32,959 nt of DNA from Verrucomicrobiia bacterium (GTDB taxonomy: Bacteria; Verrucomicrobiota; Verrucomicrobiia; Limisphaerales; UBA11358). A model generated the notes under the pieces. It searched no databases. It saw only the letters and a list, made by a program, of their open reading frames with translations, and was not told the origin of the DNA. Position numbers and translations under genes: made by a program. The stretch lies in the NCBI GenBank assembly GCA_035279985.1, contig DATEGR010000062.1, positions 1 to 32,959 on the forward strand, given 5' to 3'. Positions 7,898 to 31,400 of this stretch are shown here, in pieces (positions within the stretch are counted from its first letter, which is position 1; each line of letters opens with the position of its first letter).

Positions 7898-7960
7898 GGA
7901 AAGCCGCCGCGTGTTCGCTCTCGGATATCCCGGCAACCAAGCCCAAGGAGCTCGCGCTGG

Positions 7961-8057: not shown

Positions 8058-8101
8058 AGGTTGAGATGGTGTCGTTTCATTTTGAATGCTGTTGGTCTCA
8101 A

Positions 8102-13829: not shown

Positions 13830-15074
13830 TCATCGCCTGGCCAATTCCGCTTCGCGGCGCGGCCGGATCAGCAGAATCAGCCCCGCACTCAACAAGGCTA
13901 CGGTCGCCGAGCCGGCAAACGCCACGGAAAACTTGATGCCGTGATCCCGCATCCAGCCTAGCAGGACCGTGGCGCCGGCGCCCACGCTGATGCTGACGAA
14001 ATTCATGAAACCGTAACCGGTGGCGCGAAGTTCCGGCCGCACGATCTGGCAGAGGATGGGCATGTTGTTGCAATCGAAAAATCCCCAGCCGATGCCGAAC
14101 AACACCATGAACACCATGGCCGCGCCCACACTCCAGGCCCAGCCCATTCCCAGCAAGGCAGGCACCATCAGAAAGACCCCAACCGCACTGGCGTAGATGC
14201 GGCCGCGCGGCGTGGCGCGCATCCACCAATCGGCGGCCACGCCTCCGAGCAACACACCGGCAAATGACGCCATCTGGATGTAGCCGGTGGCCGACAAGCC
14301 GGCCGGGCCTTCTTTGAGGTGAAACGTGTCGGCCAGATAGGTGGGCAGCCAGTTCTTCGTGACCCAGCCGGCAATCGCCGGCAAGGTAAAATAAATGACC
14401 AGAATCCAGAACGCCGGTTGCAGCCACAGGGCGCGCAATGTTTCGCCGACGGTTACCGAATTTTTTTTCGCCGAAACCTCGTCGGCGGTGACCGGCGCGT
14501 CCCGCAAGGCGAGCATCAGCACGATCGAGTAAATCACGCCCACGGCGCCAAACCACGTGAAGCAGTTCCGCCAGGTGCTGGTTTGGGCGATGTAACCGCC
14601 GAGGCCGCCGAGTGCCAGGCCGGCATAAATGCCGCTTTGATGAACACCCACCGCCCGCGCCCGCGTGTGGCCCGTGTGAAAATCCGCGATGAGCGCCAGT
14701 GCCGCCGGAATGTAAAATGCCTCGCTGATGCCCATGAGCCCGCGGAAACAAAGCATCTGCGAGTAGGTGGTCGCCTGTCCCGTCGCCCAGGTCACCGCGG
14801 ACCAGACGCCCAGACTGCCGATGACCGTCCAACGGCGGTTGAACTTGTCTGCCACGAAACCGCCCAGAGGACTCAGAAACGCATACACCCACATGAACAC
14901 CGCCATGAGCGTGCCGAACTCCTGGTCGTTGGCAATGCTGGGTATGTCGGCGCGGATGGACGCGCGGATGGTGGCGACCATCTGACGATCCAAATAATTC
15001 AACAACGCCACCGGCCAGAGCAATGCCACCACCGCCCAGGCATACGTGGAAACTTTTGAGGTCGCGCCGTTCAC
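13830..15074 (-). CDS. MFS transporter, ACS family (acidic sugar / ulosonate-type substrate likely)
   Basis: 414-aa multi-TM ORF. 'ALLNYLDRQMVATIR' is the same N-terminal ACS-family motif as in the ExuT-like gene at 43..1356. The GTG start at 15074 overlaps the upstream TGA (GTGA). There is no in-frame ATG before TM1. Confidence 0.85.
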   Translation of the reverse strand: MNGATSKVSTYAWAVVALLWPVALLNYLDRQMVATIRASIRADIPSIANDQEFGTLMAVFMWVYAFLSPLGGFVADKFNRRWTVIGSLGVWSAVTWATGQATTYSQMLCFRGLMGISEAFYIPAALALIADFHTGHTRARAVGVHQSGIYAGLALGGLGGYIAQTSTWRNCFTWFGAVGVIYSIVLMLALRDAPVTADEVSAKKNSVTVGETLRALWLQPAFWILVIYFTLPAIAGWVTKNWLPTYLADTFHLKEGPAGLSATGYIQMASFAGVLLGGVAADWWMRATPRGRIYASAVGVFLMVPALLGMGWAWSVGAAMVFMVLFGIGWGFFDCNNMPILCQIVRPELRATGYGFMNFVSISVGAGATVLLGWMRDHGIKFSVAFAGSATVALLSAGLILLIRPRREAELARR

Positions 15075-16765
15075 TTCAACGTGTTCACGTTGTTGCGGGG
15101 ATCACCCCAGTCAATCTTCTTCGTCGGGTCGAGGCCGTCGAGATACTTGTCCATGACGGTGTAGCCGTCGCCCTGTAAATCCTTTTGCGCGAGTTCCGTG
15201 TCGTTCGTATCGAGATGATATTTCACCTTCCACGACAGCGGGATGCCGTCGGGGCACAGGTCTTTGATCGGTTCGCCCTTGTATTCGGGATAACCGCCAA
15301 CCTGCGATGGATTTGTGATGATGCCGTTGCCCGCCACGCCGATGTCGTTTTTGGCCAGACCCTTCCTGTATGGCGGCGTGAATTCCCTGCCTTCACTCCA
15401 AACTTTTCCCGTCCGGACCGCCTCGATGATGCGCTTGTCGACCGCGTCCCGGCAGGGCAAGGTTGCGCCAACGCCAGCCAACACTGCCTCGTAGGCCTCT
15501 TTGGCCGGGGTAATCGTCATGGGCGGCATCGGGAACGGCCGATCGACGCGGACCTTGGCGATCAAATCTTTCACAGCGTCGCCCGTGGTGACGGTCGGGT
15601 CATCCTTTGAGCCGCCGGAGGCAAACTGGACACCGCCGGCCCAGTTGTCGGCGGTGACTTTTTGGTTGCCATCAACAATATTGCCCGCGACATAAGCCTT
15701 GCCAAAGCGCGGCGTCGGGTCCGCTTTGGACTGCGTGGCGGAAGGCTCCAGGACGCGATAACGGATAGGACCGTTGTCCACCGCGGGGCCGGGTTTGAAA
15801 TAGTTGTTGATGATGTTGTAAAGACTCAATTCGCCGCCGCCGTCAATGGTGCGATGCCGCCAGTTGAACAACACATTGTTGACGAAATTAAAATCGTAGG
15901 TCATCGCCACGCTGGGATTGCGTCCGGTGTTGCAGGCAAAAAGATTGTGATGAAAACCGGTGTTGCGACCGCCCCAATCGCCGCCAAACGCGTGATTGTA
16001 GGTGTTGAGGGCCTCGCTGGTGATGCACCATTGAATCGTGACATTGACGGCGGGGAGCTTGAGCGCCGGGCCACCGTTCCTTGGCTGATACATGTGGCGG
16101 TAGGTATCGAGGTTCTGGTCCTGGCCCCAGCTCGCCGAGAGATGATCGAGGATGATATTGCCGACCGGATTGCCGTAATGAACGCCGTGACGGTTGAACA
16201 CGTCCAGGTTGCCGCGCCGCAAACGGAGATATCGGATAACGACGTCGTGGGCGTTGTCCACCAGGCCGTTGCCGGCGACGCAGACACCGTCGCCCGGCGC
16301 GGTATGACCGTCAATCGTGATGTAGGGTGCCTCGATGTAAATCGGCTTTTCCAGATGAATGATGCCGGCGACGTTAAAAACCACGATGCGCGGGCCGGCA
16401 GATTCGCAGGCTTCCCGAAACGTTCCCGGGCCGCTATCGGCGAGATTGGTCACGACAAAGACCTTTCCACCTCGCCCGCCAAAGGAAAATTTTCCACCGC
16501 CCTCGGCACCGGGGAAGGCCGGCACCTTCGCCTGCGGCAAATCTTCAGGTTTGGACGCCCACGGAATGAACGGCTTGCCCTTCTTCGCCCACTCGGCAAT
16601 TTTGGGCGAGTCTTTGGCGATGACGTTCTGCTCATATTGGTTCCAGGCGGCGTCGCGCTGCCGGATGGCGGCGTCGGGAACCGGCCAATTTTCGCGGGCA
16701 AAACCGGATGGCACGGCAAGTGAAAGCAGGGTGGCGAAGAGAATAGCATTTTTCATGTGTTTCAT
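15071..16765 (-). CDS. Secreted pectate lyase, PL1 family
   Basis: 564 aa with signal peptide MKHMKNAILFATLLSLAVPSGFA. PL1 beta-helix signatures: 'AFPGAEGGGKFSFGGRGGKVFVVTNLADSGPGTFREA', 'ILDHLSASWGQD', 'GFHHNLFACNTGRNPS', 'FVNNVLFNW'. The C-terminal 'DLQGDGYTVMDKYLDGL' is a Ca-binding-type motif. The start lies 3 nt after the upstream stop. Confidence 0.9.
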   Translation of the reverse strand: MKHMKNAILFATLLSLAVPSGFARENWPVPDAAIRQRDAAWNQYEQNVIAKDSPKIAEWAKKGKPFIPWASKPEDLPQAKVPAFPGAEGGGKFSFGGRGGKVFVVTNLADSGPGTFREACESAGPRIVVFNVAGIIHLEKPIYIEAPYITIDGHTAPGDGVCVAGNGLVDNAHDVVIRYLRLRRGNLDVFNRHGVHYGNPVGNIILDHLSASWGQDQNLDTYRHMYQPRNGGPALKLPAVNVTIQWCITSEALNTYNHAFGGDWGGRNTGFHHNLFACNTGRNPSVAMTYDFNFVNNVLFNWRHRTIDGGGELSLYNIINNYFKPGPAVDNGPIRYRVLEPSATQSKADPTPRFGKAYVAGNIVDGNQKVTADNWAGGVQFASGGSKDDPTVTTGDAVKDLIAKVRVDRPFPMPPMTITPAKEAYEAVLAGVGATLPCRDAVDKRIIEAVRTGKVWSEGREFTPPYRKGLAKNDIGVAGNGIITNPSQVGGYPEYKGEPIKDLCPDGIPLSWKVKYHLDTNDTELAQKDLQGDGYTVMDKYLDGLDPTKKIDWGDPRNNVNTLK

Positions 16766-16768
16766 TTT

Positions 16769-19063
16769 TTAGATAGAATACTCGCCCACCAGCCAGTTGA
16801 GATATTTTTCCAGATTTGTGTAGCCGTCTCCGTTGGAATCGGCGTTGGCGTCATTCGGATCGTTCGGGTTCAAACCATGGGCCTTTTCCCAGTCGTCCGG
16901 GATGCCGTCGTGATCGGCGTCCGCCGGCACGTTGTAAGTTTTATATTCCGGCCAGGGAAAATCCGGCGAGCCCAGTGCGCTTTTGTCGTCGGTCTGCGTG
17001 TCAATGATGCCGGGATAATTCGGGCCGGGCCGGTCGCCGTAGGTCGGGCCGCGGGTGCCGATAAATTCCGCCGTGCCGTTACGCACGTCCGCGATGAGGT
17101 GGCGGTCAATCACGTCCTGCCTGGGGAAATTTGCGCCGACGTTTGCAAGCACGTTCGTGAACGCTTCCCGGGCGGACTGCGTGGTGACGTAGGATGGATA
17201 GAGCGGGTGATCCACGCGCACCTGTTTTTCCACCTGCGGCCCGTTCCAAAACGCCGACCAATTGTTGGTCTCGTTCACATACCCTTCCAGAACGTTGCCG
17301 GTCATGTAATAACTTTCCGTGCCCCAGTTGGGATTAATGGGATCCAGCTTCAGCAACCATTTCACGAACGGGTTTTGGGGATAGGGCTTGTAGTAGTTGT
17401 TGACATAATTAAGCTCCGCCACGCCGCCGTCCGTGGTGCGCGCCGTCCAGTTATAAACGACATTGTTGCGGATGTCCAAATAACCGGCGTAATGCCCGCC
17501 TTTGGTCAGGCCGCCGGCCAGGCTCCAGTTCCGGTCCGTGCAATCCGCGAGCAGGTTGTGGTGATAGCTGCCGATGTCGCCGCTGATGGAGCCGGCAAAG
17601 GCGTGCGTTTCCAGCTTCGTCCGGTCGTTGGCGCGGTAATGCGGGCCGTGATGCAGGGCCTCGGCGACGATGTTACGCTGGAAGGTGATGTTCTTCGCGC
17701 CGCGTGAACTGGTGCCCTCATCCGAGCTCCAACTGATGGAGCAATGATCTATAATGCAGTTGTCGCAACTGCCCAAACCCGCGCCATCCATTGCCTTCCT
17801 GGCAAAATCCCCGATCCGGAAACGCAGATAGCGGATGATAACGTCGTGCGTGCCGTAAGCGCCACCGGAAAAATTGGCCAGGCAGATGCCGTCGCCGGGC
17901 GCGGTCTGCCCGGCAATGGTGCAATACGGATTGTGGACGGCGCAGGGCGCTTTGAGCCGGATGAGACCGGAAACCCGGAAAACAATCGTGCGCGGACCTT
18001 CGGCTTCGACGGCTGCGCGGAAACTTCCCGGAATCACCGCTTCGCCTTTGCTCCGGTCATAATCCCGCAGGTTGGTGACTTCAATCACCCGGCCGCCGCG
18101 ACCGCCGATGGCAAAGCGTCCATAACCTTCCGCCGTCGGGAACGCGAGATGCCGGACGCGAAAGCGCCAGACCTCGCCGCGCGTGACTTTGCCCGCTGCA
18201 TCCACCTCGTCCACGCGCCAGAAATAGTTTTGCCTGGAGTCGAGTTTGGGGAGGGATGGATAAGATGCATGGGACAGCTTTCCCTTGAATGCCGGCGAGG
18301 CGGTGGTCGCGTTCGCCACGGCGTTTGAATCGGTTCCAAAAAAGAATTGGTGCGAGAGAGCGTTGGCGGGGAATTTCCAGGTCAATGGCATTTTATTCGG
18401 CCAGTGCTCATCGTCGTTGGCGGGTGCCGGCTCGATGGCCTGCCGGCGCGGGTCGGGCACGTCAATGGCAAAACCATTGAGGATCAGGCTACGATTGGTG
18501 CCGGACGGTTCCGGACGGAAATGGAGTACCACGTCCTTCCCGGCGGTCGCGTCCACTTCCAGAAAAGTGCTGGCGACTTCGTCATCGTTGGTGGCGCGAT
18601 GGGTCGGCGTGAAATCCTGGATTCGTGGAGTACCATCCACCAGCACGTCGATCCGGGCCGGCGCCAGGTTGCGCACTTCGTTGTGATACGTGACGATGGT
18701 GTGTTGGCCGGGCGTCAATCCGCTGATCACCATGTCAAAACCATCCTCGCCAGAGGAATTCCCGGTCACCATGCCGTCGCAGCCCATATGGGCGCCATAA
18801 TCCAGCAGGCCCTTGAACAAGACCGGCGCCAGGCTGCCTCCCGGTGTGCGGAAAGTGACGGTGACGCTGCCAAAGGAATGGGAGCCGGACTTGCCTTCGT
18901 GCCACGCCCAGTTTTCCCAATGCGGCGTGAGCAAATCCGTCCGCCGTTCAGGTGGATTCAAGTCCACCCTTAACCCGGCTGCCGGACAGGTTGCGCCCCA
19001 GGCCATCAACATCCACATAATGGCGGAGACAAATTTGCCCTTATGACCCAATAAGAAACTCAT
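16769..19063 (-). CDS. Secreted pectate lyase, PL1 family, with CBM-like + FN3-like N-terminal module and C-terminal DxDxDG pair
   Basis: The ORF runs to 19078 (TTG). The ATG at 19063 gives MSFLLGHKGKFVSAIMWMLMAWGA... Signatures: 'RHLAFPTAEGYGRFAIGGRGGRVIEVTNL', 'IIDHCSISWSSDE', 'SYHHNLLADCTDRNWSLAGG', 'DIRNNVVYNW'. The C-terminus reads 'DADHDGIPDDWEKAHGLNPNDPNDANADSNGDGYTNLEKYLNWL'. Confidence 0.9.
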   Translation of the reverse strand: MSFLLGHKGKFVSAIMWMLMAWGATCPAAGLRVDLNPPERRTDLLTPHWENWAWHEGKSGSHSFGSVTVTFRTPGGSLAPVLFKGLLDYGAHMGCDGMVTGNSSGEDGFDMVISGLTPGQHTIVTYHNEVRNLAPARIDVLVDGTPRIQDFTPTHRATNDDEVASTFLEVDATAGKDVVLHFRPEPSGTNRSLILNGFAIDVPDPRRQAIEPAPANDDEHWPNKMPLTWKFPANALSHQFFFGTDSNAVANATTASPAFKGKLSHASYPSLPKLDSRQNYFWRVDEVDAAGKVTRGEVWRFRVRHLAFPTAEGYGRFAIGGRGGRVIEVTNLRDYDRSKGEAVIPGSFRAAVEAEGPRTIVFRVSGLIRLKAPCAVHNPYCTIAGQTAPGDGICLANFSGGAYGTHDVIIRYLRFRIGDFARKAMDGAGLGSCDNCIIDHCSISWSSDEGTSSRGAKNITFQRNIVAEALHHGPHYRANDRTKLETHAFAGSISGDIGSYHHNLLADCTDRNWSLAGGLTKGGHYAGYLDIRNNVVYNWTARTTDGGVAELNYVNNYYKPYPQNPFVKWLLKLDPINPNWGTESYYMTGNVLEGYVNETNNWSAFWNGPQVEKQVRVDHPLYPSYVTTQSAREAFTNVLANVGANFPRQDVIDRHLIADVRNGTAEFIGTRGPTYGDRPGPNYPGIIDTQTDDKSALGSPDFPWPEYKTYNVPADADHDGIPDDWEKAHGLNPNDPNDANADSNGDGYTNLEKYLNWLVGEYSI

Positions 19064-19140
19064 GCCAAAATCAATCAATGCTTACCAGCTTCCGATGCGG
19101 CTGAATACGCCCGTCACCGCCAACCACCCTTACTGCAAGT

Positions 19141-19185
19141 AAAAGCCGGGGCCAACCCCGCACCGCGGGATCAACCCCGGCTTTG
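19141..19185 (-). terminator. Rho-independent-type terminator after the 1175-aa gene
   Basis: Minus-strand RNA: AAAGCCGGGG-uugau-CCCGC-ggu-GCGGG-guugg-CCCCGGCUUU-U. The outer stem is 10 bp (19142..19151 / 19175..19184), the inner stem is 5 bp, and it ends in UUUU. It lies 39 nt after the stop at 19224. It is the only strong GC hairpin with a U run that I found in the train. Confidence 0.55.
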
Positions 19186-19223: not shown

Positions 19224-22200
19224 TTATGGATCGACCAACCGATAAAAGACGCTGGCGTTGGTTATCGAGTTGGTAAAGACTAACGCGGTATTCGTCCAAG
19301 ATCCCTTTACTCGCGTCCAGTTGGTGTTGTTCAAGCCGTTGGTAAGCGAGTCGACCTGCGTCTCGAGCACCCAACCTGGCTGAGCTTTCGGCCAGGAGAA
19401 CGTTCCCACTACATTCGTGCCTGAAACGATCGCGAAACTGTTCGTCAGATACACGACCGGTGTAGCCACGACGCCAATGTAACCATTCGGCCAAAATTGG
19501 CTGAAATCCCAGGACAGTCCCGGACCGGGCGTCGCCGGCACAATGATGGGATAGGAGTTGGTGGAGGTTCCGGTGGGAATCACATTATCGCCGCCGAAGG
19601 AATTGCCAAAGAAGTTGAACGCCTGTCCCGCTGCGAACGGTGCCCCACCAATATTCGTTATGACGAGCGTGCCACCGTTTTGTGATTGGACACTCTGGCT
19701 TGGGCCGTAATCCTGGGCGCCGGCAAACACCATGGCGCTGTTTGGCGTGTTGGTGGGATTCACTGCCAACAGGGTGGTGGAGCCGCTGTTGAGCGACAAG
19801 CGTCCGGGCACCGTGCCAATACCGTCCGAATTAATCGTTGTGCTGCCGAGCCCGCCATTACCCGGAATAAACGTTGCGCCGGCCAAAATATTCAACCGGA
19901 ACAGTGTCATGGAGCCCGCACCGGTGTCCTCCAATGTGCCATCGACCTGCAGCGTACCGCCATTGGCCACGCCGGTGTCACTGATGGTGCCCACGTTCAG
20001 CAGTAAGGCATTGGTGCCCACCGTGCCGGTTGGGCCCATGTCACTGATACTGCCGGAATTATCCATGAACGAACCGGTTTCCAGTGAGATTGGACCATTG
20101 ATGGCATTCAAATTGGTGAAAACTGCGCCATTCTGGACATCCACCAGGCCGGTAATGGTGCCGGAGCTGGTTCCCGTTCCGCCGCAAATTACTCCCGCCT
20201 TGATGGTGCCGGCATAAACCATGGTGGCGCCGGGTGAAATGTCAACCGAGTTGACCGTACCGGCGCCCGTCAGCGTTCCCTGTGTGAGGTTCACCGACAA
20301 TTCCGTGGATGCCTCGATGTCCAGGGAAGCGGTGCCGGCCTTGGTCAGGATGGCGCTGCCCACGGTGATGCCGCTTCCGCTGAGGATATAGTTCTGCAAC
20401 GAGTTGGTCATGGCGACCGAACTGACGATTAACGATCCTACCAGGTTGATGTTGGTGGGGATGGACGCGGTATCGTCAAAGGAAACGTCATCGAGATTGG
20501 CGAAGTTCGTATGCAGTCCCGTGCTCAGGTCCAGCCAATTTTTCGTGGTGGTATCCCAGTTGTTGTTCACGTAGCCGCGCCAGACCAGGGACTTGGGAAC
20601 GCTCGTCGAGATATAGACATCAATCGTACTGCCCGGACCATTATTGATGATGGTGCCGCTGTATCCGCCCGGCAAACTGACGTCCAACGTGGGCGAGCCG
20701 ACGGCGTATTGAATCAGGGGAACCTGGGCCGGCAGCGTCAGATTGTTGATGGCGCCGATCTGAATCGTGTTGCCCGAACCGGTGGTCGTCAGATTATTGA
20801 CGAAGGCATAGGCCCCGCTGTGGTTGCCGTTGACGAAAAGTTCCATGGTCGAATTACCTCCAAAACTAAGCAGGCCCAGGGATCCATTCGGCGTGGAATC
20901 GGCGATGTTGTTGGAGACGACCAGCAGGGCTCCGCTCGTGAGCGTGATCTGGTTGAGCTGGCCGTGCCCATCGGTGGAACCGACCAGGCCGGAGGTCTTG
21001 GTCACTCCTCCCACACCGATGGTGTTGGCAATCACGGTGCCACCCGGACCGATGTTGATGATGCCGTAGGTGGAACCCGGATCGGAAAGGTCACTAATGC
21101 CTGCCGTGGTATAACCCAGTTCCAGATCAGTATTGGCCCGGAAAACGGCGGTGTTGGAGACAATCAACTGCGCCTGGCAATAGTCGAGATTCGTTTGGTT
21201 CCCTTGCTCCTGGTCTCCGAGGATGGCGGTATTGGCATCGAAAATTCCCGCGCCCAATCCCATCTTCGACTGTGCGGTGCAGCCACTGGAGGAATTCGGA
21301 CGATCTCGGGACATGATAAACCGGTCCACCAAAGCATCCACATAGCCGTTACCGCTGGCAAAATCCACGCCGGGAGCCTTGGTATTACCGCCAGCCGGGG
21401 TGGGACCGCCTGCGTCGGCCAGGCAGAACATGCTCATGCGGCTGACGCCATCGGTGTTGCGGAAGTAGACACTTGGATTGTCGCTGGCAAAATTCGTGTT
21501 AAAATTCACCGAGCCATCAGCCGCGCCAAATCCGCTGATGCAAAGGCTGTCCATGTTGAAGGAGTTCGAGATGCCCAGACTGATCAGGAGCAATTTGCTG
21601 GAACTCGTCGCCTGATTCAAATTATTGCCCAGAATCAGGCTGTAGGCCCGGTTCGTGCCATTGGTATAATCATTGGGATCCGCATAGACGGCTTTGACGA
21701 CATTCGTCATCGCCAGTTTGACCGTTGGCAGGTAAAGCTTGGGCACGCCATTGTATCCGTTCGTCTGGAGGTTCCAGAAGTTCGGATAGAGCAGGTAATC
21801 TCCCAGCCCGACCTGGCTGACATCCGCCTTATAATTGCCCAACCCCGACAGGTCCAGGGTGCTGGTTTGGCTATTATCAATCAGCGTCGCAATACTGGCA
21901 GTTTCGTTACTGACCAGCAGGGTGCCGGATTGGCCTGCCACCGTGACATTCATTCCTGACCCAAGGCCCACGTAATCCCGCAACTGGCTGAAACCATTGG
22001 TCCCGGTGACGGCAAGGGTCACATTCGGATCAATCAGCACGGTTTGAACGTTAGTGCTGCTATTGGTTTGCGAAAAACGCAGGGAGCCAATGGTGAAATT
22101 TTGGTTCACGATACTATTGGTGGTCACGGATGATTGGGCCCCCGCCTGGGTAAACACCACATCATCGTTGGCGCCGGGCAGGACTCCTCCATTCCAGTTC

Positions 22201-22751
22201 CCGGTATCCGACCAGTTGATGGTCGAGCCGCCGACTTTCCACAGATCCGCTACTTGCAAGGTGATGAAGAGAGTATTGGTTGCCCCATTGGCCGCGTTGA
22301 GGTCGAAGGTATAAATTCCCTCCGCCACGTTCGCGAGCGTCAAGGTCAGGTTCGCCCCCCCGCTATTGGTAAAAGCCGTTTTATCGAGGCTCGCGGAGGC
22401 ACCTGTTGGCAAGCCCGACACGGACAGGTCCACCTCGTTTGAACCGCCAGCGATCGTTACGTGGTTGGAAATCACCAAGGAACCGCTAAAATTAAATGGC
22501 ACCGTCAGCCGCAGTGGTATGGCGGTCAGGTTGACGGTTTCCTGCGCCGCCGCCGGCATCACTAGCGCGGCTAAAAGCAAACAAGCGAGGGCCAGCCCGG
22601 ACCTTGTGCGGGAGGCGATCCTTGATATTGAGCCTGCGCCGGGTTCGGCGACATAACAGCCAGTGGGGTTGAGTAGGTTCATTCGCATAGGTTTTGATTT
22701 AGGTTGATTGACAGGGAGGGAGTGAATTGAGGATTTTTTAGCTGTGTTCAT
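19224..22751 (-). CDS. Large secreted beta-strand-repeat (autotransporter-passenger-like, PATR-type) surface protein without beta-barrel, with FYR-ending C-terminal domain
   Basis: 1175 aa, very rich in G/T/S/N/V. Repeat units of the type '..LSGSGITVGSAILTKAGTASLDIEASTELSVNLTQGTLTGAGTVNSV..' are typical of autotransporter-associated beta-strand repeats. The hydrophobic signal core LALACLLLAALVMPAAAQE sits about 50-70 residues in; alternative starts are at 22688 and 22682. The C-terminus is '..WTRVKGSWTNTALVFTNSITNASVFYRLVDP'. Confidence 0.85.
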   Translation of the reverse strand: MNTAKKSSIHSLPVNQPKSKPMRMNLLNPTGCYVAEPGAGSISRIASRTRSGLALACLLLAALVMPAAAQETVNLTAIPLRLTVPFNFSGSLVISNHVTIAGGSNEVDLSVSGLPTGASASLDKTAFTNSGGANLTLTLANVAEGIYTFDLNAANGATNTLFITLQVADLWKVGGSTINWSDTGNWNGGVLPGANDDVVFTQAGAQSSVTTNSIVNQNFTIGSLRFSQTNSSTNVQTVLIDPNVTLAVTGTNGFSQLRDYVGLGSGMNVTVAGQSGTLLVSNETASIATLIDNSQTSTLDLSGLGNYKADVSQVGLGDYLLYPNFWNLQTNGYNGVPKLYLPTVKLAMTNVVKAVYADPNDYTNGTNRAYSLILGNNLNQATSSSKLLLISLGISNSFNMDSLCISGFGAADGSVNFNTNFASDNPSVYFRNTDGVSRMSMFCLADAGGPTPAGGNTKAPGVDFASGNGYVDALVDRFIMSRDRPNSSSGCTAQSKMGLGAGIFDANTAILGDQEQGNQTNLDYCQAQLIVSNTAVFRANTDLELGYTTAGISDLSDPGSTYGIINIGPGGTVIANTIGVGGVTKTSGLVGSTDGHGQLNQITLTSGALLVVSNNIADSTPNGSLGLLSFGGNSTMELFVNGNHSGAYAFVNNLTTTGSGNTIQIGAINNLTLPAQVPLIQYAVGSPTLDVSLPGGYSGTIINNGPGSTIDVYISTSVPKSLVWRGYVNNNWDTTTKNWLDLSTGLHTNFANLDDVSFDDTASIPTNINLVGSLIVSSVAMTNSLQNYILSGSGITVGSAILTKAGTASLDIEASTELSVNLTQGTLTGAGTVNSVDISPGATMVYAGTIKAGVICGGTGTSSGTITGLVDVQNGAVFTNLNAINGPISLETGSFMDNSGSISDMGPTGTVGTNALLLNVGTISDTGVANGGTLQVDGTLEDTGAGSMTLFRLNILAGATFIPGNGGLGSTTINSDGIGTVPGRLSLNSGSTTLLAVNPTNTPNSAMVFAGAQDYGPSQSVQSQNGGTLVITNIGGAPFAAGQAFNFFGNSFGGDNVIPTGTSTNSYPIIVPATPGPGLSWDFSQFWPNGYIGVVATPVVYLTNSFAIVSGTNVVGTFSWPKAQPGWVLETQVDSLTNGLNNTNWTRVKGSWTNTALVFTNSITNASVFYRLVDP

Positions 22752-22783
22752 GATCGGTCCGCCAGCCTTTCGTCAGTCCGGCC

Positions 22784-23689
22784 TTATCGGTAAGGCATGT
22801 GGTCATCCATCCATTCGTAATCACGGCTGACACCCAGATTGACCATGCCCCAGGGGCTGCTGCTGCTGCCGCCGTAAGTTTTCATCAGGACTGGATACAC
22901 TGTCGTTCGGAGGCCGCCCGTTTCCTGCCACTTGTGGATCTCCGAATGTCCGTCGGCAAAAGAGAAACAACAGGCACCATTGAAGAAACTGGCCGGCAGG
23001 TCGCGCCATCTCTCGGAACCCTGGGACGCACCGGGATTGAACATGAACTTGCCATCGTTAATGCTGTCGGGGTGTTCGTCCAAAATCACAAAAACCATGG
23101 AAGGATGGATCAGATCCGTCGTTCTCACGACGTTGGAATTTCCTCCGTAATAGGCCCGGCCGCCGGGCGCGCTGCCTTCCACAATGGGGCCGGAAGAGCC
23201 GCCCAACGCGCCGTTCATGGCGTAACTGCGCACCCGCGGTCCAGGATTGGCGGAAGATTTGTAGTTGTCGGCCGGATCCTTAAACACATGGTAATTCCTG
23301 ATGTAAGGTGCCAGCAACGGTAATGGCTGCCCACTCGGTCGGGGACCCACCAGCAGGGTCGTGTCGATATTCTGCAGGCTCGCGCTCCAATCCATGGTGC
23401 CCAATACCCACGAGGACGATGACACCAGCTCTTCATGATGATCACCGGAATACTCGGCCCACGCCAACATCTGTTGCCGGGTGTTGGACATGGATTCCGT
23501 CGCCTGCGCCTTGAGCTTCGCCGCGGCCAGCACCGGCAGCAGCATGGCCGCCAGAATGGCAATGATGGCGATCACCACCAATAACTCAATCAACGTAAAC
23601 CCGTGGCCGCGGCCAGCCTCCCCACGACCCTTCTCGACACCGAGGTTAATGCCTTTCAAACGTAACGATCCACTTCGGGATTTATGCAT
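22784..23689 (-). CDS. Prepilin-type N-terminal cleavage/methylation domain protein, H-X9-DG / DUF1559-like pseudopilin (paralogue 1)
   Basis: 301 aa. The sequence 'GRGHG|[28 protein letters not shown]' shows a class III signal with Gly at -1, Phe at +1 and Glu at +5. The C-terminal '[18 protein letters not shown]' is the H-X9-DG region, here with Phe in place of the His. It is paralogous along its whole length to 23948..24868. Confidence 0.9.
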
Positions 23690-23782
23690 ATTTGTAATGC
23701 TAGGATTAGTTAAAACCTAGCACATAGGTTGAAAAGGCAGAATGCAAAAATTGTCAAATCATTTGCTAAAAATGATAAGTGC
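23690..23782 (-). promoter_or_regulatory. Conserved AT-rich upstream region / 5' leader of pseudopilin paralogue 1
   Basis: Homologous to 24869..24980. TAATCCT lies exactly 13-19 nt upstream of the ATG in both copies (23702..23708, 24881..24887). Both also carry a second block, tcatttttagcaaatgatTTGACAatttttgcattctgcc vs tcatttttggtgatgatTTGCCGttattgcagattgttcc (minus strand). There is no Shine-Dalgarno-like purine run before either ATG. Confidence 0.45.
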
Positions 23783-23947
23783 TGGAGACGGCAAATGACC
23801 GGCGACGCAATGGGAAAGCGTGAAGCCACGCGATTGCGGCAGGTCACACACCCGTCGCAGGGTCAACATCTTACCGGATCAGGACGAGGCGGAGGTGCGC
23901 CAGTGCTGTCATGCGCGGGGACGTGCATCAAGATGGTCGCATGCCGG

Positions 23948-24868
23948 TTATTGGTAAGGCATGCGGTCGTTCATCCACGCGTAATCCCGGCTGCCATAGA
24001 TGCCGTCGTACAATTTGTGATTTCCCCACGGCGAATTGGCGCTATTGGCATAATTTTGATAGGTGACGGGATAAACCGCCTTCTTGACGCTGTCGGTTTC
24101 CACCCAATGGTGAATTTCCGAATGGCCATCGGCAAAAGAGAAGCAACAACCGCCGCCGTGGTAACTGGCCGGCAGGTTGCGCCAGATCTCATTCGCGGGA
24201 ATAGCTCCGGGGCTGAACTGATACACCGCATCGTCGATGCTGTCGGCGTGTTCGTCCAACATCACAAAGACGATGGCGGGATGGCGCAGATCTGACATTT
24301 TGTTGGCGTCCGTTTTCAGAGGTGAACTACTGCTCGACCCATAATACTTTCGATGTTCCGGGTAGACGCCCAGGACGTTGGGGCCGGAACTGCCGCCGCC
24401 CAGCGCGCCGTTCATGGCATAACTGCGGACCCGCGGACCGGGACTTTGAGAATTCCGGTAAGTATCCGACGGGCACTTATAAAGAGCCGCCGACTTGACA
24501 TAGTCTGCCATCAAGTTCGTGCCAACCAGCATCGACGTGTTGGTATTGTCGGTCGAGCCGGCCGCCCATTTCATCTGGCCGAAAACCCATTTATGATAAT
24601 CCATCAATTGCTCCTGACTATCGACGGTGTACATAATCCAGCCCAGCATCAATTGCCGGGTGTTGGACATGCAGCGAATCGCCTTCGCCCGTTCTTTCGC
24701 CGCCGCCAGCGCCGGCAACAGCATGGCCGCCAGGATGGCAATGATGGCAATCACCACCAGCAACTCAATCAGGGTAAAACCGTGACCACGGAGACATTTC
24801 CCACGACGCTTTTCCGCGCCAAAGCCAGCGCTCGCCAGCAGTGAAGATTCACTTTGGGGTTGGTGCAT
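23948..24868 (-). CDS. Prepilin-type N-terminal cleavage/methylation domain protein, H-X9-DG / DUF1559-like pseudopilin (paralogue 2)
   Basis: The ORF extends to 25057, but the ATG at 24868 gives a leader that aligns residue for residue with paralogue 1 ([30 protein letters not shown]|[28 protein letters not shown]). The C-terminal '[20 protein letters not shown]' is an exact H-X9-DG. Confidence 0.9.
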
Positions 24869-24980
24869 ATAATAAATAGCAGGATTAATAAATGCCAACA
24901 CGCTTTTCACCAACCCTAACACGTATCGCTTCAGGAACAATCTGCAATAACGGCAAATCATCACCAAAAATGAGAATTGC
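24869..24980 (-). promoter_or_regulatory. Conserved AT-rich upstream region / 5' leader of pseudopilin paralogue 2
   Basis: See 23690..23782. It has the same TAATCCT spacing to the ATG and the same distal block (24934..24980 vs 23736..23782). Confidence 0.45.
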
Positions 24981-25049
24981 CGGAGGCGGCGGATGATCAA
25001 CACGGGACGGGTAAGTTGTAATGACGCGGGTCGTGACCGCGCTTGGTGT

Positions 25050-25080
25050 TTTTGCAAACCGGCGCAGCCAGCTTGCGCCG
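25050..25080 (-). terminator. Candidate weak terminator hairpin downstream of the pseudopilin remnant / sialidase-like gene
   Basis: Minus strand: CGGCGCA-agctggc-TGCGCCG-GUUUGCAAAAAC. The stem is 7 bp (25060..25066 / 25074..25080) and starts 2 nt after the remnant's TAA. The U tract is short and interrupted. Confidence 0.3.
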
Positions 25081-25081
25081 A

Positions 25082-25141
25082 TTATTGGCAGGGCATGTGG
25101 CCGTCCGTCTATTCGTAGTTCCGGCTGATGCCCGGATTTAG
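25082..25141 (-). pseudogene. 3'-terminal remnant of a third H-X9-DG pseudopilin paralogue
   Basis: The minus-strand translation is LNPGISRNYE*TDGHMPCQ*. It aligns with the C-termini of paralogue 1 ([19 protein letters not shown]) and paralogue 2 ([17 protein letters not shown]). The conserved Trp codon TGG has become TAG. Homology stops about 7 nt from the stop codon of the sialidase-like gene (25148). Confidence 0.7.
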
Positions 25142-25147
25142 AGTTGT

Positions 25148-26258: not shown

Positions 26259-28295
26259 TTACTGCCGTTGCAGCCAGACGCTCATTTCGGACTTGCCACG
26301 GTTGTCCCAGACACAGTACGGAATCAACCGGGTTTTGACGGGGCGGGTCTGAACGTCGATCGCTTTGCGATAAAGTTGTCCATCCCATTCGCTCGCGGGT
26401 TGCGTCCGCAGCGTGCAGTCCAATGCCACCACGCCGCCCAGCAGCCGCCGGTCATAACGGGCCGCGAATTTAACATCCGTCGGCACGCGGATTTGCATGA
26501 CGCCGACGTTGCGTGGCAAGTCCGTGGATTCCAGGCAATAGACCACCGGTCCGCGTTTGACCGCCACCTGATGCAAATCATCTTCGACCAGCGGGTTCGC
26601 CTCAATTACCTCCACCGGCATCGGGATGTCGAGGTCAATGAAGTCACCCGGTTGCCAGGTCCGCCGAATTTCAAAATACGTTCCCGGCACGGGGGAATTG
26701 TCCGCCGGCCCGTCGTTGATCCGGACCGACGCGCTCCCTGCCCAGCCGGGGATGCGCAATTTCAATGCCAGCGGCATTTCGCCACACTGATTGATGGTGA
26801 TACGCACACGGCCATTCCACGGATAGTCGGTCTCCTGGGTCAGTTTGATCTTCCGTCCGTTCCCAATCGTCGTATCGAGCACACTGCCGCCATAGAGATT
26901 TATCCAGATCGTGTCGCCGGATTTGGCATAAGCATAATTTGCCGACTCGGCGATGGTGCGGACCAGATTGGGCGGGCAACAGAACGAATTGAGAAACGGC
27001 ACGCGCGTCCGCGGCCAGCGCAATTCCGTCGGCATCGTATCAAGCTGGCGCAGCGGGTTGACGTAAAAGTAATTTGTCCCGTCGAGGCCGCTGCCGGACA
27101 ACACGCTATTGTCCAGCGCGAGCTCAACCACGTCCATGAACTTCGCCTGGCCGGTGGCCAGGAACATTCGCCAGTTCCACATCACATTGCCAATGTTGGC
27201 ACAGGTTTCGCAGTAGGCGGTGAGGTTGGGCAGTTGATAGTTCCGTCCATACGCCTGATGAACCCGCGTGATCGTCTTCTGGTCTTTCGCGCCGTCCGGT
27301 GATGCTCCGTCCCACAACGCGCCACAGCCGCCGGTGATGTACATTTTTTTGTCGACCACGTTTGTCCAGATCGATTCCAGTGGCTTCCACAACGTTGGAT
27401 CGCCGGTTTCCAGGAACAAATCCGCCGCGCCGGCGTACAGGTAATTGGCGCGGACCGCGTGTCCCACGGCTTCGTCCTGTTCTGGAAAGGGAACACGGTC
27501 CTGATTGTCATCACCGCCGTCGGTCACCAGATCGCGCATGGCGAAGAGGTGCCTGGCGAGGGCCAGATAACGCGGGTTACGCGTCGTGCGATACAACTCA
27601 ACAACGCCCATGTAATGCGATGGACAAACCAGGTTTCGCGCCAGCTCCGGTGTCGGGCGCTGGAAAGTCCGATCGAGGAAATCCGCCGCGCGGCAGGCGA
27701 TGGCGAGCAGGTTGGTTTGCCCGGTCGCCCGGTAGTTGACGCACGCCGCCGTCATCAAATGGCCCAGGTTGTACATTTCAAAATCATTCGGGTTCTGAAA
27801 CGGCACGGCATTGGTGTCGCCGTTGCGCTCGCGAATCAGCGTGCCCGTTTGAATATAGCCATCCGCGCGCTGGGCCTTGCCGATGATGTCGACGATTTGT
27901 TCGATGGTCGCGCCCAGTCCGGGATCGTGCGTTTGGCCGTACATCGCCGACGCGCCTTCGAGCCATTTGTAGAAATCGCCGTCATTGAACGGCGCGCCGT
28001 GATGACGACCCGGTTCCAACCCGGCGGCGATGCGGAAGTTCTGATAAAACCGGGTGTAATTGGTGCCTTCCATCAGTTGCCACATTGCCGGGATCATCCG
28101 CTGACGGCACAGCGCAAAGCGCTCCGCCCACAGACCCTGCGTCCAATGGGCTTCATCCAAACCCACACTCCGAACCTGTGCGTCCGGACTCAGACGGTCG
28201 TCCGCCACGCCGGACTCAGCCGCGGCAACGCGGTTGAGTAATAAAAGTGTCGCGGCGAGAATGGCTCCCGAAAAAATAATTGGCAACCGGCGCAT
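26259..28295 (-). CDS. Glycoside hydrolase family 127 (DUF1680, beta-L-arabinofuranosidase family)
   Basis: The ORF extends to 28649 (TTG). The ATG at 28295 gives the signal peptide MRRLPIIFSGAILAATLLLLNRVAAAE; an alternative ATG lies at 28310. 'AYCETCANIGNVMW' (Glu/Cys Zn-site) and 'NSFCCPPNLVRT' (the Cys-Cys of the catalytic/Zn site) are GH127 HypBA1-type hallmarks. The overall length fits DUF1680. Confidence 0.9.
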   Translation of the reverse strand: MRRLPIIFSGAILAATLLLLNRVAAAESGVADDRLSPDAQVRSVGLDEAHWTQGLWAERFALCRQRMIPAMWQLMEGTNYTRFYQNFRIAAGLEPGRHHGAPFNDGDFYKWLEGASAMYGQTHDPGLGATIEQIVDIIGKAQRADGYIQTGTLIRERNGDTNAVPFQNPNDFEMYNLGHLMTAACVNYRATGQTNLLAIACRAADFLDRTFQRPTPELARNLVCPSHYMGVVELYRTTRNPRYLALARHLFAMRDLVTDGGDDNQDRVPFPEQDEAVGHAVRANYLYAGAADLFLETGDPTLWKPLESIWTNVVDKKMYITGGCGALWDGASPDGAKDQKTITRVHQAYGRNYQLPNLTAYCETCANIGNVMWNWRMFLATGQAKFMDVVELALDNSVLSGSGLDGTNYFYVNPLRQLDTMPTELRWPRTRVPFLNSFCCPPNLVRTIAESANYAYAKSGDTIWINLYGGSVLDTTIGNGRKIKLTQETDYPWNGRVRITINQCGEMPLALKLRIPGWAGSASVRINDGPADNSPVPGTYFEIRRTWQPGDFIDLDIPMPVEVIEANPLVEDDLHQVAVKRGPVVYCLESTDLPRNVGVMQIRVPTDVKFAARYDRRLLGGVVALDCTLRTQPASEWDGQLYRKAIDVQTRPVKTRLIPYCVWDNRGKSEMSVWLQRQ

Positions 28296-28449
28296 GACAA
28301 AAATTTCCATTCTTCGATCCAAATCGGGCCTCATGATAGGCCGGATTGCCTCGACGTAAAAACATTTCGTGCCCGCTGTCAAAAAAGACAAAATTTCTGT
28401 TGGATATCGCATTCTCGACACCCCGGACCTGTGGACATATTTTGGCCAG
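28296..28449. promoter_or_regulatory. Divergent intergenic region between the GH127 train (-) and GH78 (+)
   Basis: 154 bp, relatively AT-rich, and the only divergent junction in the window. It contains three A-tract/T-tract motifs: GACAAAAATTTCC (28296..28308), GTAAAAACATTTCG (28356..28369) and GACAAAATTTCT (28387..28398). I could not place a convincing -35/-10 pair. Confidence 0.4.
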
Positions 28450-31400
28450 ATGCATTGGTTCGACAGGATTCTGGGCGCTGGGTTGAAAACCATCTGCAGG
28501 TTTCCGGCGGCCATCGCGCTTGCTTTCGTGTCCTCCGCCTGGGCCAATACCACAGTCACGGAGTTGCGCTGTGAATATCTGGAAAATCCCGCGGGTATTG
28601 ATACCGGGCAGCCGCGGCTGGCTTGGATTCTGAATTCCGACGGGCGCAACCAGCGGCAAACAGCCTATCAAATCCTCGTGGCCGGCAGCGAGGCCCGGCT
28701 CAACGCGAACGTCGGCGATTTGTGGGACAGCGGCAAAGTGGATTCCGACCAATCCATCCAGGTGCGGTACACCGGCAAGGCGCTCGTGTCGGACGAACCG
28801 TGTTTCTGGAAGGTGCGCGTTTGGGACAAAGAGGGCAAGGCGTCGGCCTGGAGCAGGCCGGCAGAATGGAGCATGGGATTGCTCCAGCCTTCCGACTGGC
28901 ACGCCCAATGGATCGGGCTGGATGGCGAAGATGCCACCGATTACCTCGCCGGCACGGGCTGGATATGGTTCCCGGAAGGCGAGCCGGAAAAATCCGCGCC
29001 GCCCGGTGAACGGTATTTCCGCCGCGTGATCGTGATTCCGTCGGATCGCGAAGTTCGACGCGCCAGCTTCGTATACACCGGTGACAACCTGTGCCGGGGC
29101 TGGTTGAACGGCCGTGATCTCGGCGCCCGCGCCAGTTATCACGTCGTCAAGGACAACGACATCACGTATCTCCTTCAGCCGGGAACCAACGTTATCGCGC
29201 TCACGGGCTACAACCGGGGGACGAATGCAAAACCGGCGGGTGTCGTCGGTTTGTTGACGGTCGAATTCGACCATGGCCCGCCGTTGATCATTCCCACCGA
29301 CGACCAGTGGAAGGTCTCCGACCAGGACCCGGCCAACTGGAACATGCCGAGTTTCGATGACTCGGCGTGGGTGTCGGCCAAAGTGCTCGGTCCGGTCGGC
29401 ATGCAACCCTGGGGCAATGTCCGCATTTCTGAATCACGTCGGCAACCCGCCCGGTGGCTGCGAAAGCAGTTCAACGCCGACAAGAAGATCAAGCGCGCGA
29501 CGGTTTCTTTCTGTGGGTTGGGCTGGTCAGAGTTGTATCTGAACGGTCGAAAGGTGGGCGACGCGGTTCTGTCACCAGCTTTTGCTCAATACAACCGGCG
29601 TGTGTTCTACGTTACCTATGATGTGACAAAACAGTTGCGGCGTGGCGCCAATGCCATGGGCGTGGTGCTGGGCAACGGACGATATTATGCCGACCGCAGC
29701 AAGGTTTATACGGGCACGGCGACTTTTGGCTGGCCCAAATTGTTGCTGCAACTCCGCGTGGAATATGCGGATGGTTCAGTTTCGAACATCGTCAGTGATG
29801 CATCGTGGAAATTGACGACCAACGGGCCGATTGTGGCCAACAACGATTATGACGGCGAAGAATATGATGCCCGGAAGGAATTTCCCGGCTGGAGCCAACC
29901 GGGCTTTGATGATTCAAGTTGGCAGCCGGCACGAATCGTTGCCGCGCCACCGGGCGTCGTGGTTGCCCAGATGATTGAACCCATCCGCGTCACCGGCACA
30001 CTGAAGCCGGTGACACTGACCGAGCCAGAACCGGGCATCTACATTTACGATCTGGGCCAAAACATGGTCGGTTGGGCGCGGCTGAAGGTCTCCGGTCCGG
30101 CCGGCACGCGGGTGAGGCTGCGCTTCGCCGAAGTGCTCAAGCCGGACGGCACGCTTTACGTGGCTAACCTGCGCGGCGCGCTGGCCACCGACACTTACAC
30201 GCTCAAAGGGCAGGGGACCGAAGTCTGGGAACCGCGTTTTACTTCGCATGGATTCCGCTATGTCGAGGTCACCGGTTATCCCGGCAAACCCGGCCTGGAT
30301 GCCATCGCCGGCCGGATCGTGAACGACGATTTGCCGACCAACGGTGGGTTCGAGTGTTCCAATCCATTGCTCAACCGGATTTATCGCGCCGTCGTCTGGG
30401 GCGTGCGCGGCAATTATCACAGCATCCCGACCGATTGTCCGCAGCGCGACGAGCGGCAGGGCTGGCTCGGCGACCGCTCGGAGGAATCTAAAGGTGAAAC
30501 TTATTTGTTCGACAACTCAGCGCTTTACGCCAAGTGGCTGCAAGACATCGCCGACGCCCAGCGGTCCAACGGCAGCGTGCCGGATATTGCCCCTGCGTTC
30601 TGGCCCATTGACTCGGACGACGTCATCTGGCCCAGCACCGGCATCATCATCCCCGAAATGTTGCGCGAACAATACGATGACACGGAAACCATCACGCGCC
30701 ATTACGACAGCGCCAAAAAGTGGGTGGATTTCATGGGCGGTTTTGTCACCAACGGCCTCATCTCGAGGGACAGCTACGGCGACTGGTGCGTACCGCCGGA
30801 GGATCCGGCTTTGATTCATTCCCGGGATCCGAACCGGGCGACGGACAAAACCCTGCTGGCGACCTCCTTTTTTTTCCACGATCTCCGGCTGATGGAACGG
30901 TACGCGCAGATGCTAGGAAAAACCGACGATGCCCGGCAGTTTCACGACCAGGCGGAAAAGATGAAGACCGCGTTCAACAACCGGTTTCTTAATCGCGTTT
31001 CGGGCCAATACGACAACGGCTCCCAAACGTCCTGCGTGCTGCCACTGGCTTTTGGCCTGGTACCGGACGACCTGCGTCAGCGGATTTTCATTCATCTGAT
31101 GGACAAGATTGTGAACGAAAGTCACGGCCACATCGGCACGGGCCTGGTAGGCGGCCAATACTTGATGCGGGTGCTGACTGACAATGGCCGGCCCGATCTG
31201 GCCTACACCATTGCCAGCCAAAAAGCCTATCCCGGTTGGGGTTACATGATCGAACAGGGGGCGACCACCATCTGGGAACTTTGGAACGGTAATACCGCCG
31301 ATCCCGAAATGAATTCCCGCAACCACGTCATGCTGGTGGGTGACCTGGTCATCTGGCTTTACGAAGACCTCGCCGGTATCAAACCCGATCCGGCTGCGCC

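Follow-up and report, generated by a model that had tools for sequence, protein, structure and literature searches.

A pilin-like protein and a long beta-helix protein paired in a rhamnogalacturonan II-type locus of a soil-type verrucomicrobium: a candidate surface module

We analyzed a 32,959-nt stretch of DNA (contig DATEGR010000062.1, hereafter the window) from a soil-type verrucomicrobium and studied a module on its minus strand, at positions 19224-25141, in which genes for pilin-like proteins precede a gene for a protein of 1175 amino acids (aa) that we refer to as the giant. Our analyses revealed that a pilin gene and a giant gene form a recurrent pair, and that this pair sits at the head of an operon of enzyme and transporter genes whose content is of the type expected for the pectic polysaccharide rhamnogalacturonan II (RG-II). 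The reading we favor, to which we give a probability of roughly 0.4, is that the pilin docks or exports the giant as a cell-surface beta-helix fibre for first contact with RG-II, and that the two together are a two-component module of the RG-II locus. The grounds for this reading are observations of pilin features, of a fibre fold, of gene adjacency and context, of the boundaries of the unit, and of fast evolution.

Listing and translation of the open reading frames (ORFs) placed four features in or at the module, within a train of minus-strand genes: two pilin-like genes (pilA and pilB), the giant gene and a hairpin. The genes, with an alternative start for the giant, are as follows.

23948-24868, minus strand: pilA, 306 aa, ATG at 24868; an extra, lineage-specific copy of the pilin gene
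22784-23689, minus strand: pilB, 301 aa; the conserved partner, directly upstream of the giant
19224-22751, minus strand: giant, 1175 aa; its start lies 32 nt past the pilB stop
22682, minus strand: alternative start of the giant, M24; the database call of the same gene is 1152 aa

This layout agrees with an earlier note on this DNA, which had described two paralogous pilin-like genes of ~300 aa followed 32 nt later by a gene of 1175 aa. The same note had found no other pilus or type II secretion system (T2SS) component and, in the island, no TonB-dependent or SusCD-like gene and no regulator, and our scan of the 17 large ORFs of the window likewise returned no T2SS or pilus machinery, no TonB/SusCD gene and no regulator. 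In related loci, unlike in the window, an AraC-type regulator is present at no more than ~8 kb from the pair. A longer ORF for pilA, starting at a TTG and reaching to 25057, was rejected because homologues gave it no support.

Giant homologues were examined in 13 contexts, consisting of the window, loci L001-L003, L008, L009, L010, L011/L012, L097, L098 and L099, and two Joint Genome Institute (JGI) contigs, across which giant identity ranged from 33 to 89%. A pilin gene was located directly upstream of the giant in every one of them (13/13), being split by a frameshift in L008. The pairing is not due to chance, because the adjacency recurs in all of these contexts. Pilin copy number varied from 1 to 3, with a single gene in distant loci and three tandem genes in L002 (2585-5946), and the conserved unit is thus one pilin plus the giant. 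The idea that a pair of pilins is characteristic of the module was not upheld, as the second pilin, pilA, is a lineage-specific duplicate. The number of contexts may grow: 12 of the best 120 pilA homologues are on contigs equal in size to contigs bearing giant homologues, which suggests many more co-occurrences of pilin and giant. The pilA orthologue in L001 (6217-7126) and the sole pilin of L008 (8876-9881) are each split across two frames, and these split genes could be pseudogenes or the result of assembly error.

The surroundings of the pair were also found to be persistent. The same RG-II-type neighbourhood was present in 11 of the 13 contexts, with genes for GH138, GH127, GH78, GH141, apiosidase, DUF3826, pectate lyases (PLs), major facilitator superfamily (MFS) transporters and a dihydrodipicolinate synthase (DHDPS)-family protein. 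Downstream of the pair in these contexts are genes for a PL-like protein, a protein of ~560 aa, an MFS transporter, DHDPS, an MGH1-like glycoside hydrolase (GH) and DUF6298, and upstream of it, or divergent from it, are genes for GH78, GH141, DUF3826, GH2, GH95, apiosidase or AraC. The link to a pectin locus that had been drawn for the window was therefore confirmed as one to an RG-II-type locus that is kept down to 33% giant identity, and the module is no one-off insertion.

In the window itself, a neighbouring protein of 949 aa matches the structure of the GH138 enzyme BPa0997 (E 1e-236), and the other enzymes comprise GH127, a BNR_2 sialidase-like protein, GH78, DUF3826, DUF6298, an MGH1-like GH and a DHDPS-family aldolase, accompanied by two MFS transporters. 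Three paralogous pectate-lyase-like proteins (2247-5492, 15071-16765 and 16769-19078) have 33-50% identity to one another, and one of them matches PDB entry 9buj (E 8e-43). Sister loci add genes for GH141, apiosidase, GH2, GH95, AraC, and PdxA/four-carbon-acid-kinase-like proteins. Judged by its gene content, the window is probably the verrucomicrobial counterpart of the Bacteroides RG-II polysaccharide utilization locus (PUL), with MFS transporters in place of SusCD; no SusC/SusD-type PUL pair was found among the window ORFs, whose transporters are the two MFS proteins.

The two pilin-like proteins share 57% identity. Both have RGHG| at the cleavage site, an identical N-terminal stretch, a Glu at +5 and a 30-residue basic leader, the site in pilA reading G|FTLIELL with E+5. 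Both exceeded the cut-off of the PF07963 model (33.2 bits for pilB and 32.5 bits for pilA versus 21.2; E 3e-8/6e-8) and that of TIGR02532 (31.8 bits versus 16.3), which substantiates the prepilin-type N-terminus that had been proposed for them. A profile built from 64 pilin homologues matched solved type IV (T4) pilins and GspG over the N-terminal helix only. In the 64 aligned homologues, residues F31-I40 were invariant, which implies selection for pilin processing and assembly. The AlphaFold2 (AF2) model of pilA (mean predicted local distance difference test score, pLDDT, 88.4) has a helix of 51 residues at 33-83 and strands at 150-153, 201-206, 240-245 and 250-254, so that as modelled it would be a classic pilin “lollipop”, with a long alpha-1 helix, a 4-strand sheet and long loops. 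Assignment of the proteins as major or minor T2SS pseudopilins (GspG/H/I/J) was rejected, as scores against the equivalog models were far under the cut-offs (17-33 bits versus 44-89) and only the N-terminal ~30-55 residues aligned. A periplasmic-binding-protein (PBP) fold for the pilin head was also rejected, based on its few helices, its one small sheet and the absence of PBP matches in Foldseek.

The C-terminal part of the pilins had been assigned to the H-X9-DG/DUF1559 family, and this assignment stood only in part. In its favor, pilA passes PF07596 (DUF1559) marginally, at 27.6 bits versus a cut-off of 23.3 with the match confined to a 20-residue C-terminal stretch (residues 231-251), and carries a true H-X9-DG motif. 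However, pilA scores 14.8 bits against TIGR04294 (H-X9-DG), under the cut-off of 19, and pilB has no match to either PF07596 or TIGR04294 and has F-X9-DG, with Phe for His. The motif region common to the two proteins is of the type ..F[AS]DG[HS].., the H position varies among giant-adjacent pilins (F, Y, H or A), and some close pilA homologues carry PF07596. Because of the marginal PF07596 match, the failure against TIGR04294, and the failure of pilB against both, pilA and pilB are best described from their sequences as probable peripheral members of the H-X9-DG family, in a divergent verrucomicrobial subfamily. Acidic and His residues that are invariant or nearly so were also seen to cluster in the pilin head (D205, E206, D209, D213, H237, D247, H249, E251 and H253; window ~24110-24256), and a pair of Cys residues (C66 and C132) is near-invariant across the family. 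In pilA, the D/E/H cluster and the Cys pair resemble a metal site plus a disulfide.

The giant was modelled by AF2 with a pLDDT of 86.4, and the following regions were delineated.

22548-22751, minus strand: giant residues 1-68, a low-confidence extension plus a Sec-type signal peptide (..GLALACLLLAALVMPAAA|QE)
22239-22544, minus strand: giant residues ~70-171, an Ig-like beta-sandwich (DSSP strands 72-171), with many Ig-/PapD-like Foldseek matches of ~100-130 columns
19572-22229, minus strand: giant residues ~175-1060, a long right-handed beta-helix of short regular strands in the AF2 model (~900 residues)
19227-19484, minus strand: giant residues ~1090-1175, a C-terminal beta-sandwich of ~85 residues (strands 1091-1173), with the end ..VFYRLVDP

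Residues 1-53 have a pLDDT of <50 and are followed by a hydrophobic helix at 54-63. The position of signal-peptide cleavage was inferred from the sequence, and the A-x-A|Q pattern is kept in the giant family consensus. Start motifs of the form W..G...NW...F..DD recur at ~171-200 and 722-760. The best whole-length fold matches of the giant in the PDB are autotransporter passengers, namely Hap (3syj; E 2.8e-4), EspC, SepA, Hbp, Ag43 and EspP, all of them weak (Foldseek E 3e-4 to 1e-2). A match in the viral library (BFVD) was to a “parallel beta-helix repeat” protein, and Foldseek searches against the PDB and BFVD together returned only generic beta-helix and Ig-like signals, with no tailspike, depolymerase or specific lyase among them. 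A sequence-profile search of the PDB with the giant family gave a single weak Ig-like match. The giant is modelled here as a Sec-exported long beta-helix fibre that lacks an autotransporter barrel. Neither the AF2 model, in which the C-terminus is a beta-sandwich, nor the Pfam search, which gave no Autotransporter match, contains a 12-strand barrel translocator (~250-300 residues), just as the earlier note had held. The giant cannot be a type V secretion substrate, because it is without a C-terminal 12-strand barrel and without two-partner secretion (TPS) or extended signal peptide region (ESPR) features.

The label of autotransporter-type repeats that had been given to the giant needs qualification. 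No Pfam match was obtained for the giant at E=10, PATR (PF12951/TIGR02601) included, and at the same threshold NCBIfam gave one non-credible match, to galactoside O-acetyltransferase (E 0.76). On the other hand, of 139 giant homologues, ~40 (~1700-1900 aa, 32-39% identity over ~90% of the query) carry PF12951, and the beta-helix fold with its weak passenger matches is in keeping with the label. Since the distant homologues carry PF12951 and the giant itself matches no PATR model, its sequence makes it a likely relative of the PATR family and not a demonstrable member. Residues R225, R431, D446, K804 and eight Trp are invariant in the giant family. Membership of the giant in the pectate lyase or GH28-type beta-helix enzymes was considered and rejected, as alignment with hhalign to the profile of the neighbouring PL gave a probability of 0.1% and there was no CAZy Pfam match. 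A general sorting tag was considered for the C-terminal sandwich and rejected as well, because its hidden Markov model matches giant-family proteins only (99 loci). PEP-CTERM (exosortase-sorted) genes adjoin the pair in L008 (7122-8066) and L098 (5148-5972), and the giant has no PEP-CTERM tail. In two distant loci, L016 (1-14869) and L004 (9691-19566), arrays of 2-3 PATR-type giants (1484-2933 aa) were observed in which a pilin gene lies between the giants or follows them; this suggests that the pilin-giant theme extends past RG-II loci. The PATR-type giants of L016 adjoin a Y_Y_Y-type hybrid sensor kinase.

The pair was found to have signals at both of its ends.

23741-23769, minus strand: conserved upstream element TTAGCAAATGATTTGACAATTTTTGCATT, lying ~50-80 nt ahead of the pilB ATG; it may be a promoter or operator
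24869-25147, minus strand: intergenic region upstream of pilA with a diverged copy of the pilB element in the same ATG context (..TAATCCTGCTA..ATATGCA), identified by alignment of pilin upstream regions
19141-19185, minus strand: intrinsic-terminator-like hairpin with a GC-rich stem of ~19 bp and a 3-nt loop, then CUUUU; it closes the pilin-giant unit

The element TTAGCAAATGATTTGACAATTTTTGCATT occurs once in the window, where 0 copies are expected by chance. Its core is identical in L001, L002, L003 and L008, and degenerate copies are recognizable in L009, L011 and L097. A sigma-70-like match was also detected at 24898-24869, and its function is doubtful because it abuts the pilA ATG. At the other end, folding and an inverted-repeat scan of the window bore out the statement that the only strong terminator hairpin closes the module, the hairpin at 19141-19185 being the sole long intergenic inverted repeat with a tight loop. 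A hairpin and U-tract were located at the same position in L003, L002, L008, L009, L011 and L097; the stem base AAGCCGGGG/CCCCGGCUU is kept in these six loci, and the upper stem differs yet pairs. Because an element upstream and a terminator downstream are both conserved, the pair has the appearance of a unit of its own, and we predict that it is transcribed either as a separate unit or as an attenuated leader. Read-through from the pair into the enzyme genes could be attenuated. The earlier description of the module as tightly embedded in a co-directional operon is thus correct insofar as the link to the locus is conserved, but the conserved terminator splits the module from the downstream enzymes.

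Comparison of the window with related loci revealed that the pair is also set apart by its rate of change. Nucleotide identity to L003 is mostly >0.9 in the flanks (range ~0.8-0.98) and 0.98 inside pilA, and falls to 0.54-0.72 over ~23800-~19700, an interval comprising pilB together with the first 85% of the giant. The C-terminal domain of the giant is its least diverged part, with a nucleotide identity to L003 of ~0.85 (0.83-0.86). At the protein level, identity to L003 is 56% for the giant, 65% for pilB and 95% for pilA, and mostly 78-94% for the flanking enzymes. No proteins have diverged further than the giant (33-75% identity) and the pilins (42-69%) in any of the 7 loci compared, orthologous enzymes having 66-95%; the exception is the pilA copy in L002 and L003 (79-95%). 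By the Nei-Gojobori method, synonymous divergence (dS) from L003 is 1.2 for the giant and 1.06 for pilB, with ratios of nonsynonymous to synonymous divergence (dN/dS) of 0.29 and 0.25; the enzymes have a dS of 0.2-1.0 and a dN/dS of 0.12-0.18, GH127 against L003 and DHDPS against L008 being left out as frame artefacts. The locus is a recombination mosaic, as dS swings from 0.11 to 1.2 between adjacent genes. The cassette itself would fit an allele-like replacement together with weaker or diversifying constraint, as is typical of exposed surface proteins. That pilB and the giant have diverged jointly fits a physical partnership, and does not prove it.

The pilin family as a whole is very large, with at least 8000 significant members (8000 of 8000 scored candidates). 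The DUF1559 family has been reported as the largest paralogue group of Planctopirus limnophila, with 68 copies, two of them essential, and a function left unexplained (PMC10632474). In Planctomycetota, Verrucomicrobiota and Lentisphaerota, H-X9-DG/DUF1559 genes rank with the most expanded families, as the earlier note had also stated. We drew a pattern-driven sample of 65 full-length members from 54 loci of Planctomycetota-Verrucomicrobiota-Chlamydiota (PVC) bacteria. Only one of these 65 pilin genes had a giant-family gene nearby, so pairing with a giant is the trait of a subfamily and not of the family. Among 20 ORFs directly downstream of sampled pilins, 8 encode glycan-related extracytoplasmic proteins, 3 cytoplasmic housekeeping proteins and 9 unknown or other proteins. 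Five of the glycan-related ORFs are enzyme-type (GH78, a pectate-lyase-like beta-helix protein, DUF4838/GH67N, a BD-FAE esterase and a 3-keto-disaccharide hydrolase) and three are binding-type (Ig/PA14, Ig/Laminin_G, and Laminin_G_3 with F5/8 type C). This sample of 20, to which no statistical test was applied, hints at a broader rule of pilin plus exoprotein.

Additional variations were observed in the genes around the pair. In L001, the pectate-lyase-like copy of 769 aa is cut down to an N-terminal remnant of 73 residues and a short fragment. The MFS protein encoded at 13830-15074 of the window has 94-95% identity in L001 and L002 and 31% in L003 (17681-18916), where its neighbours have 78-86%; this is an apparent non-orthologous transporter replacement inside an otherwise syntenic operon. 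Inverted repeats were located inside the DUF6298 gene (8712-8781; 23-nt arms, 96% complementary, 24 nt apart) and near the 5' end of the GH138-like gene (7974-8046; 27-nt arms, 85% complementary), the latter ~60-130 nt inside the ORF at 5252-8101. That ORF (TTG 8101 ... 5252) overlaps the next gene by 240 nt. The divergent listed starts of GH127 (TTG 28649) and GH78 (GTG 28369; 28369-31737) overlap by ~280 nt, which means that at least one of them is over-extended. An ORF of 396 aa at 28216-29406 on the minus strand had no family match and is probably spurious. A search of the whole window against Rfam gave no matches.

If the favored reading is correct, a prepilin peptidase would cleave the pilin at G|F, and a T2SS- or T4 pilus (T4P)-like filament machine encoded elsewhere in the genome would insert it. 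The large pilin head would then bind the giant, and the bound giant would in this way cross the outer membrane, to be either retained on a short pseudopilus or pilus or shed from it. There the exposed beta-helix would contact pectic RG-II ahead of the lyases, the glycosidases and the MFS transporters, in a role functionally analogous to that of the surface glycan-binding proteins (SGBPs) of Bacteroidota. The extra pilin copies of this lineage would be recent duplicates. That the pair captures or imports polysaccharide, as the earlier note had suggested, is something we infer, and T2SS-like export of the giant explains the data equally well.

Several points weigh against this scheme. The filament machine is assumed, as no T4-filament machine, prepilin peptidase or secretin was found in the window or in the fetched flanks. 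Only the N-terminal helix of the pilA model was aligned by Foldseek (to pilin 1ay2), the head having no PDB match. Searches of the giant with Pfam, NCBIfam and hhalign to the neighbouring PL detected no carbohydrate-binding module (CBM), lectin or enzyme domain, and its conservation profile is flat, a search for a binding hotspot having shown none that was obvious. RG-II is structurally very conserved, and one would not readily expect such a ligand to have a hypervariable binder. Because the terminator separates the pair from the enzyme genes, their co-expression is not guaranteed. Finally, two of the 13 contexts depart from the rule: the P0016 contig keeps only DUF3826, esterase and fucosidase genes near the pair, and the pair in L098 is among housekeeping genes.

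Other explanations were weighed against the same data. The giant may not be a docked fibre at all, but a new beta-helix lyase or hydrolase that is released to make the first cut in RG-II or its homogalacturonan backbone, the pilin being a cargo-specific T2SS pseudopilin. Pectin-active enzymes as a rule adopt the beta-helix fold, and three PL-like paralogues are encoded in the locus; 8 of the 20 sampled pilins have a glycan-related ORF downstream, 5 of enzyme type, and the giant family has invariant charged or aromatic residues (R225, R431, D446, K804 and the eight Trp). We nevertheless consider this unlikely, as the giant has neither profile similarity to the adjacent pectate lyase nor a CAZyme Pfam family, its top fold matches are the stalks of adhesin and protease autotransporters rather than lyases, its flat conservation has no visible catalytic cluster, and its dN is 3-8x faster than that of the true enzymes alongside. 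The same hyperdivergence and allele-like replacement, which are typical of surface proteins exposed to phages or predators, could instead point to a generic variable surface coat, that is, a fibre for adhesion, of S-layer-like type or acting as a phage decoy, that has no part in glycan use and whose position in RG-II loci reflects shared clade ancestry. A conserved terminator isolating the pair from the enzymes, the pairs of L098 and the P0016 contig away from the operon, and the more distant PATR giants in non-CAZyme contexts (L013 and L014) would all suit such a coat. What makes it improbable in our view is that the same enzyme synteny persists while the giant drops to 33% identity and grows from ~1150 to ~1835 residues, and that the genes around the pair have been reshuffled (GH78/GH141/DUF3826 or BNR_2/GH127 upstream), a pattern that would be difficult to account for if linkage were not under selection. 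In addition, the pair comes first in a rightward operon in distant loci, with an AraC gene and a divergent promoter region beside it.

The pilins could also act alone, as membrane-anchored binding proteins that pass RG-II oligosaccharides to the MFS transporters of the operon, with the giant as an independent neighbour. Class-III signal peptides anchor the sugar-binding proteins of Sulfolobus in this manner (PMC3047682), the Pfam name of DUF1559 is SBP_bac_10, and the head residues D205, E206, D209, D247 and H249, which are invariant, and H237 and H253, which are nearly so, have the look of a metal or ligand site. This is very unlikely given that the head is predicted to form a pilin-like sheet bearing long loops and not a two-lobed PBP, with zero PBP matches in Foldseek, that F, Y or A can take the place of the H of H-X9-DG among the partners of giants, and that the strict 13/13 adjacency and the joint divergence of pilin and giant argue for joint action. 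A more sweeping proposal extends the favored reading to the family: H-X9-DG pilins would be cargo-specific adaptors of T4 filaments, each exporting or displaying the exoprotein encoded just downstream, and the pilin/beta-helix pair would replace SusC/D-type glycan capture at the RG-II loci of Verrucomicrobiia. We regard this as a doubtful generalization at present; if true, it would explain why no paralogue group of PVC genomes is larger than the H-X9-DG family.

The favored reading, in which the pilin docks or exports the giant, has precedents in pilins that are paired with a secreted or binding partner, such as TcpB/TcpF (PMC10120004, PMC9565799), CofB/CofJ (PMC6048534) and modular pilins (PMC8179133). 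As in the mechanism proposed here, TcpB/TcpF of Vibrio cholerae and CofB/CofJ of enterotoxigenic Escherichia coli (ETEC) consist of a pilin with an enlarged head encoded beside a Sec-exported protein, and a partner of the TcpF/CofJ type needs its pilin for crossing of the outer membrane or for its position at the filament tip (PMC10120004, PMC9565799, PMC6048534). These systems differ from ours in that they have no sequence or detected fold relation to it and are encoded with the whole machine, whereas the cargo here is a beta-helix of ~1,100 residues in a glycan locus. The minor pilins of type IVa pili (T4aP) with PilY1, and the GspH-K tip of the T2SS, are likewise pilin-like proteins co-encoded with a large non-pilin at the filament tip; there, four different minor pilins are combined with a beta-propeller adhesin, as opposed to the 1-3 pilins of near-identical type found here. 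In the Sulfolobus bindosome, a pilin-type N-terminus places carbohydrate-acquisition proteins at the cell surface (PMC3047682), but that system is archaeal and has ABC-type solute-binding folds, and the head domain here is not PBP-like.

The SGBPs of Bacteroidota (SusD, SusE/F-type) resemble the pair in their position at the head of the operon and in being non-catalytic, as the pair was by every test run. SGBPs diverge fast, and the pair too is much less conserved than the enzymes of its locus. The giant is not homologous to them and has no lipoprotein signal or TonB-dependent partner, and the uptake genes here are of MFS type. With the PATR proteins and passenger stalks (Hap, Ag43 and EspP), the giant has in common a long right-handed beta-helix. 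With the H-X9-DG/DUF1559 family, pilA and pilB share the architecture of a prepilin leader, an alpha-1 helix, a head of ~220 residues and a C-terminal DG motif, and differ in that the giant-paired subfamily has a fixed genomic partner. In the open-access papers and preprints that we searched, there was no report linking H-X9-DG pilins to PATR-type proteins or RG-II loci, and no functional study of DUF1559, H-X9-DG, or PATR with a pilin. The component families were known already, and what is new is the fixed partnership of pilin and giant in an RG-II context, with its own unit signals and fast divergence.

Pili from crateriform structures have been proposed to serve polysaccharide uptake in Planctomycetes, with none of their parts identified (Boedeker 2017, cited in PMC12673574). 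The finding reported here bears on how PVC bacteria grip polysaccharides without SusCD systems. It also draws attention to an unannotated beta-helix family whose members may be surface proteins that bind or cut glycans. Overall, the fixed partner and the RG-II context give the H-X9-DG pilin family a concrete and testable setting.

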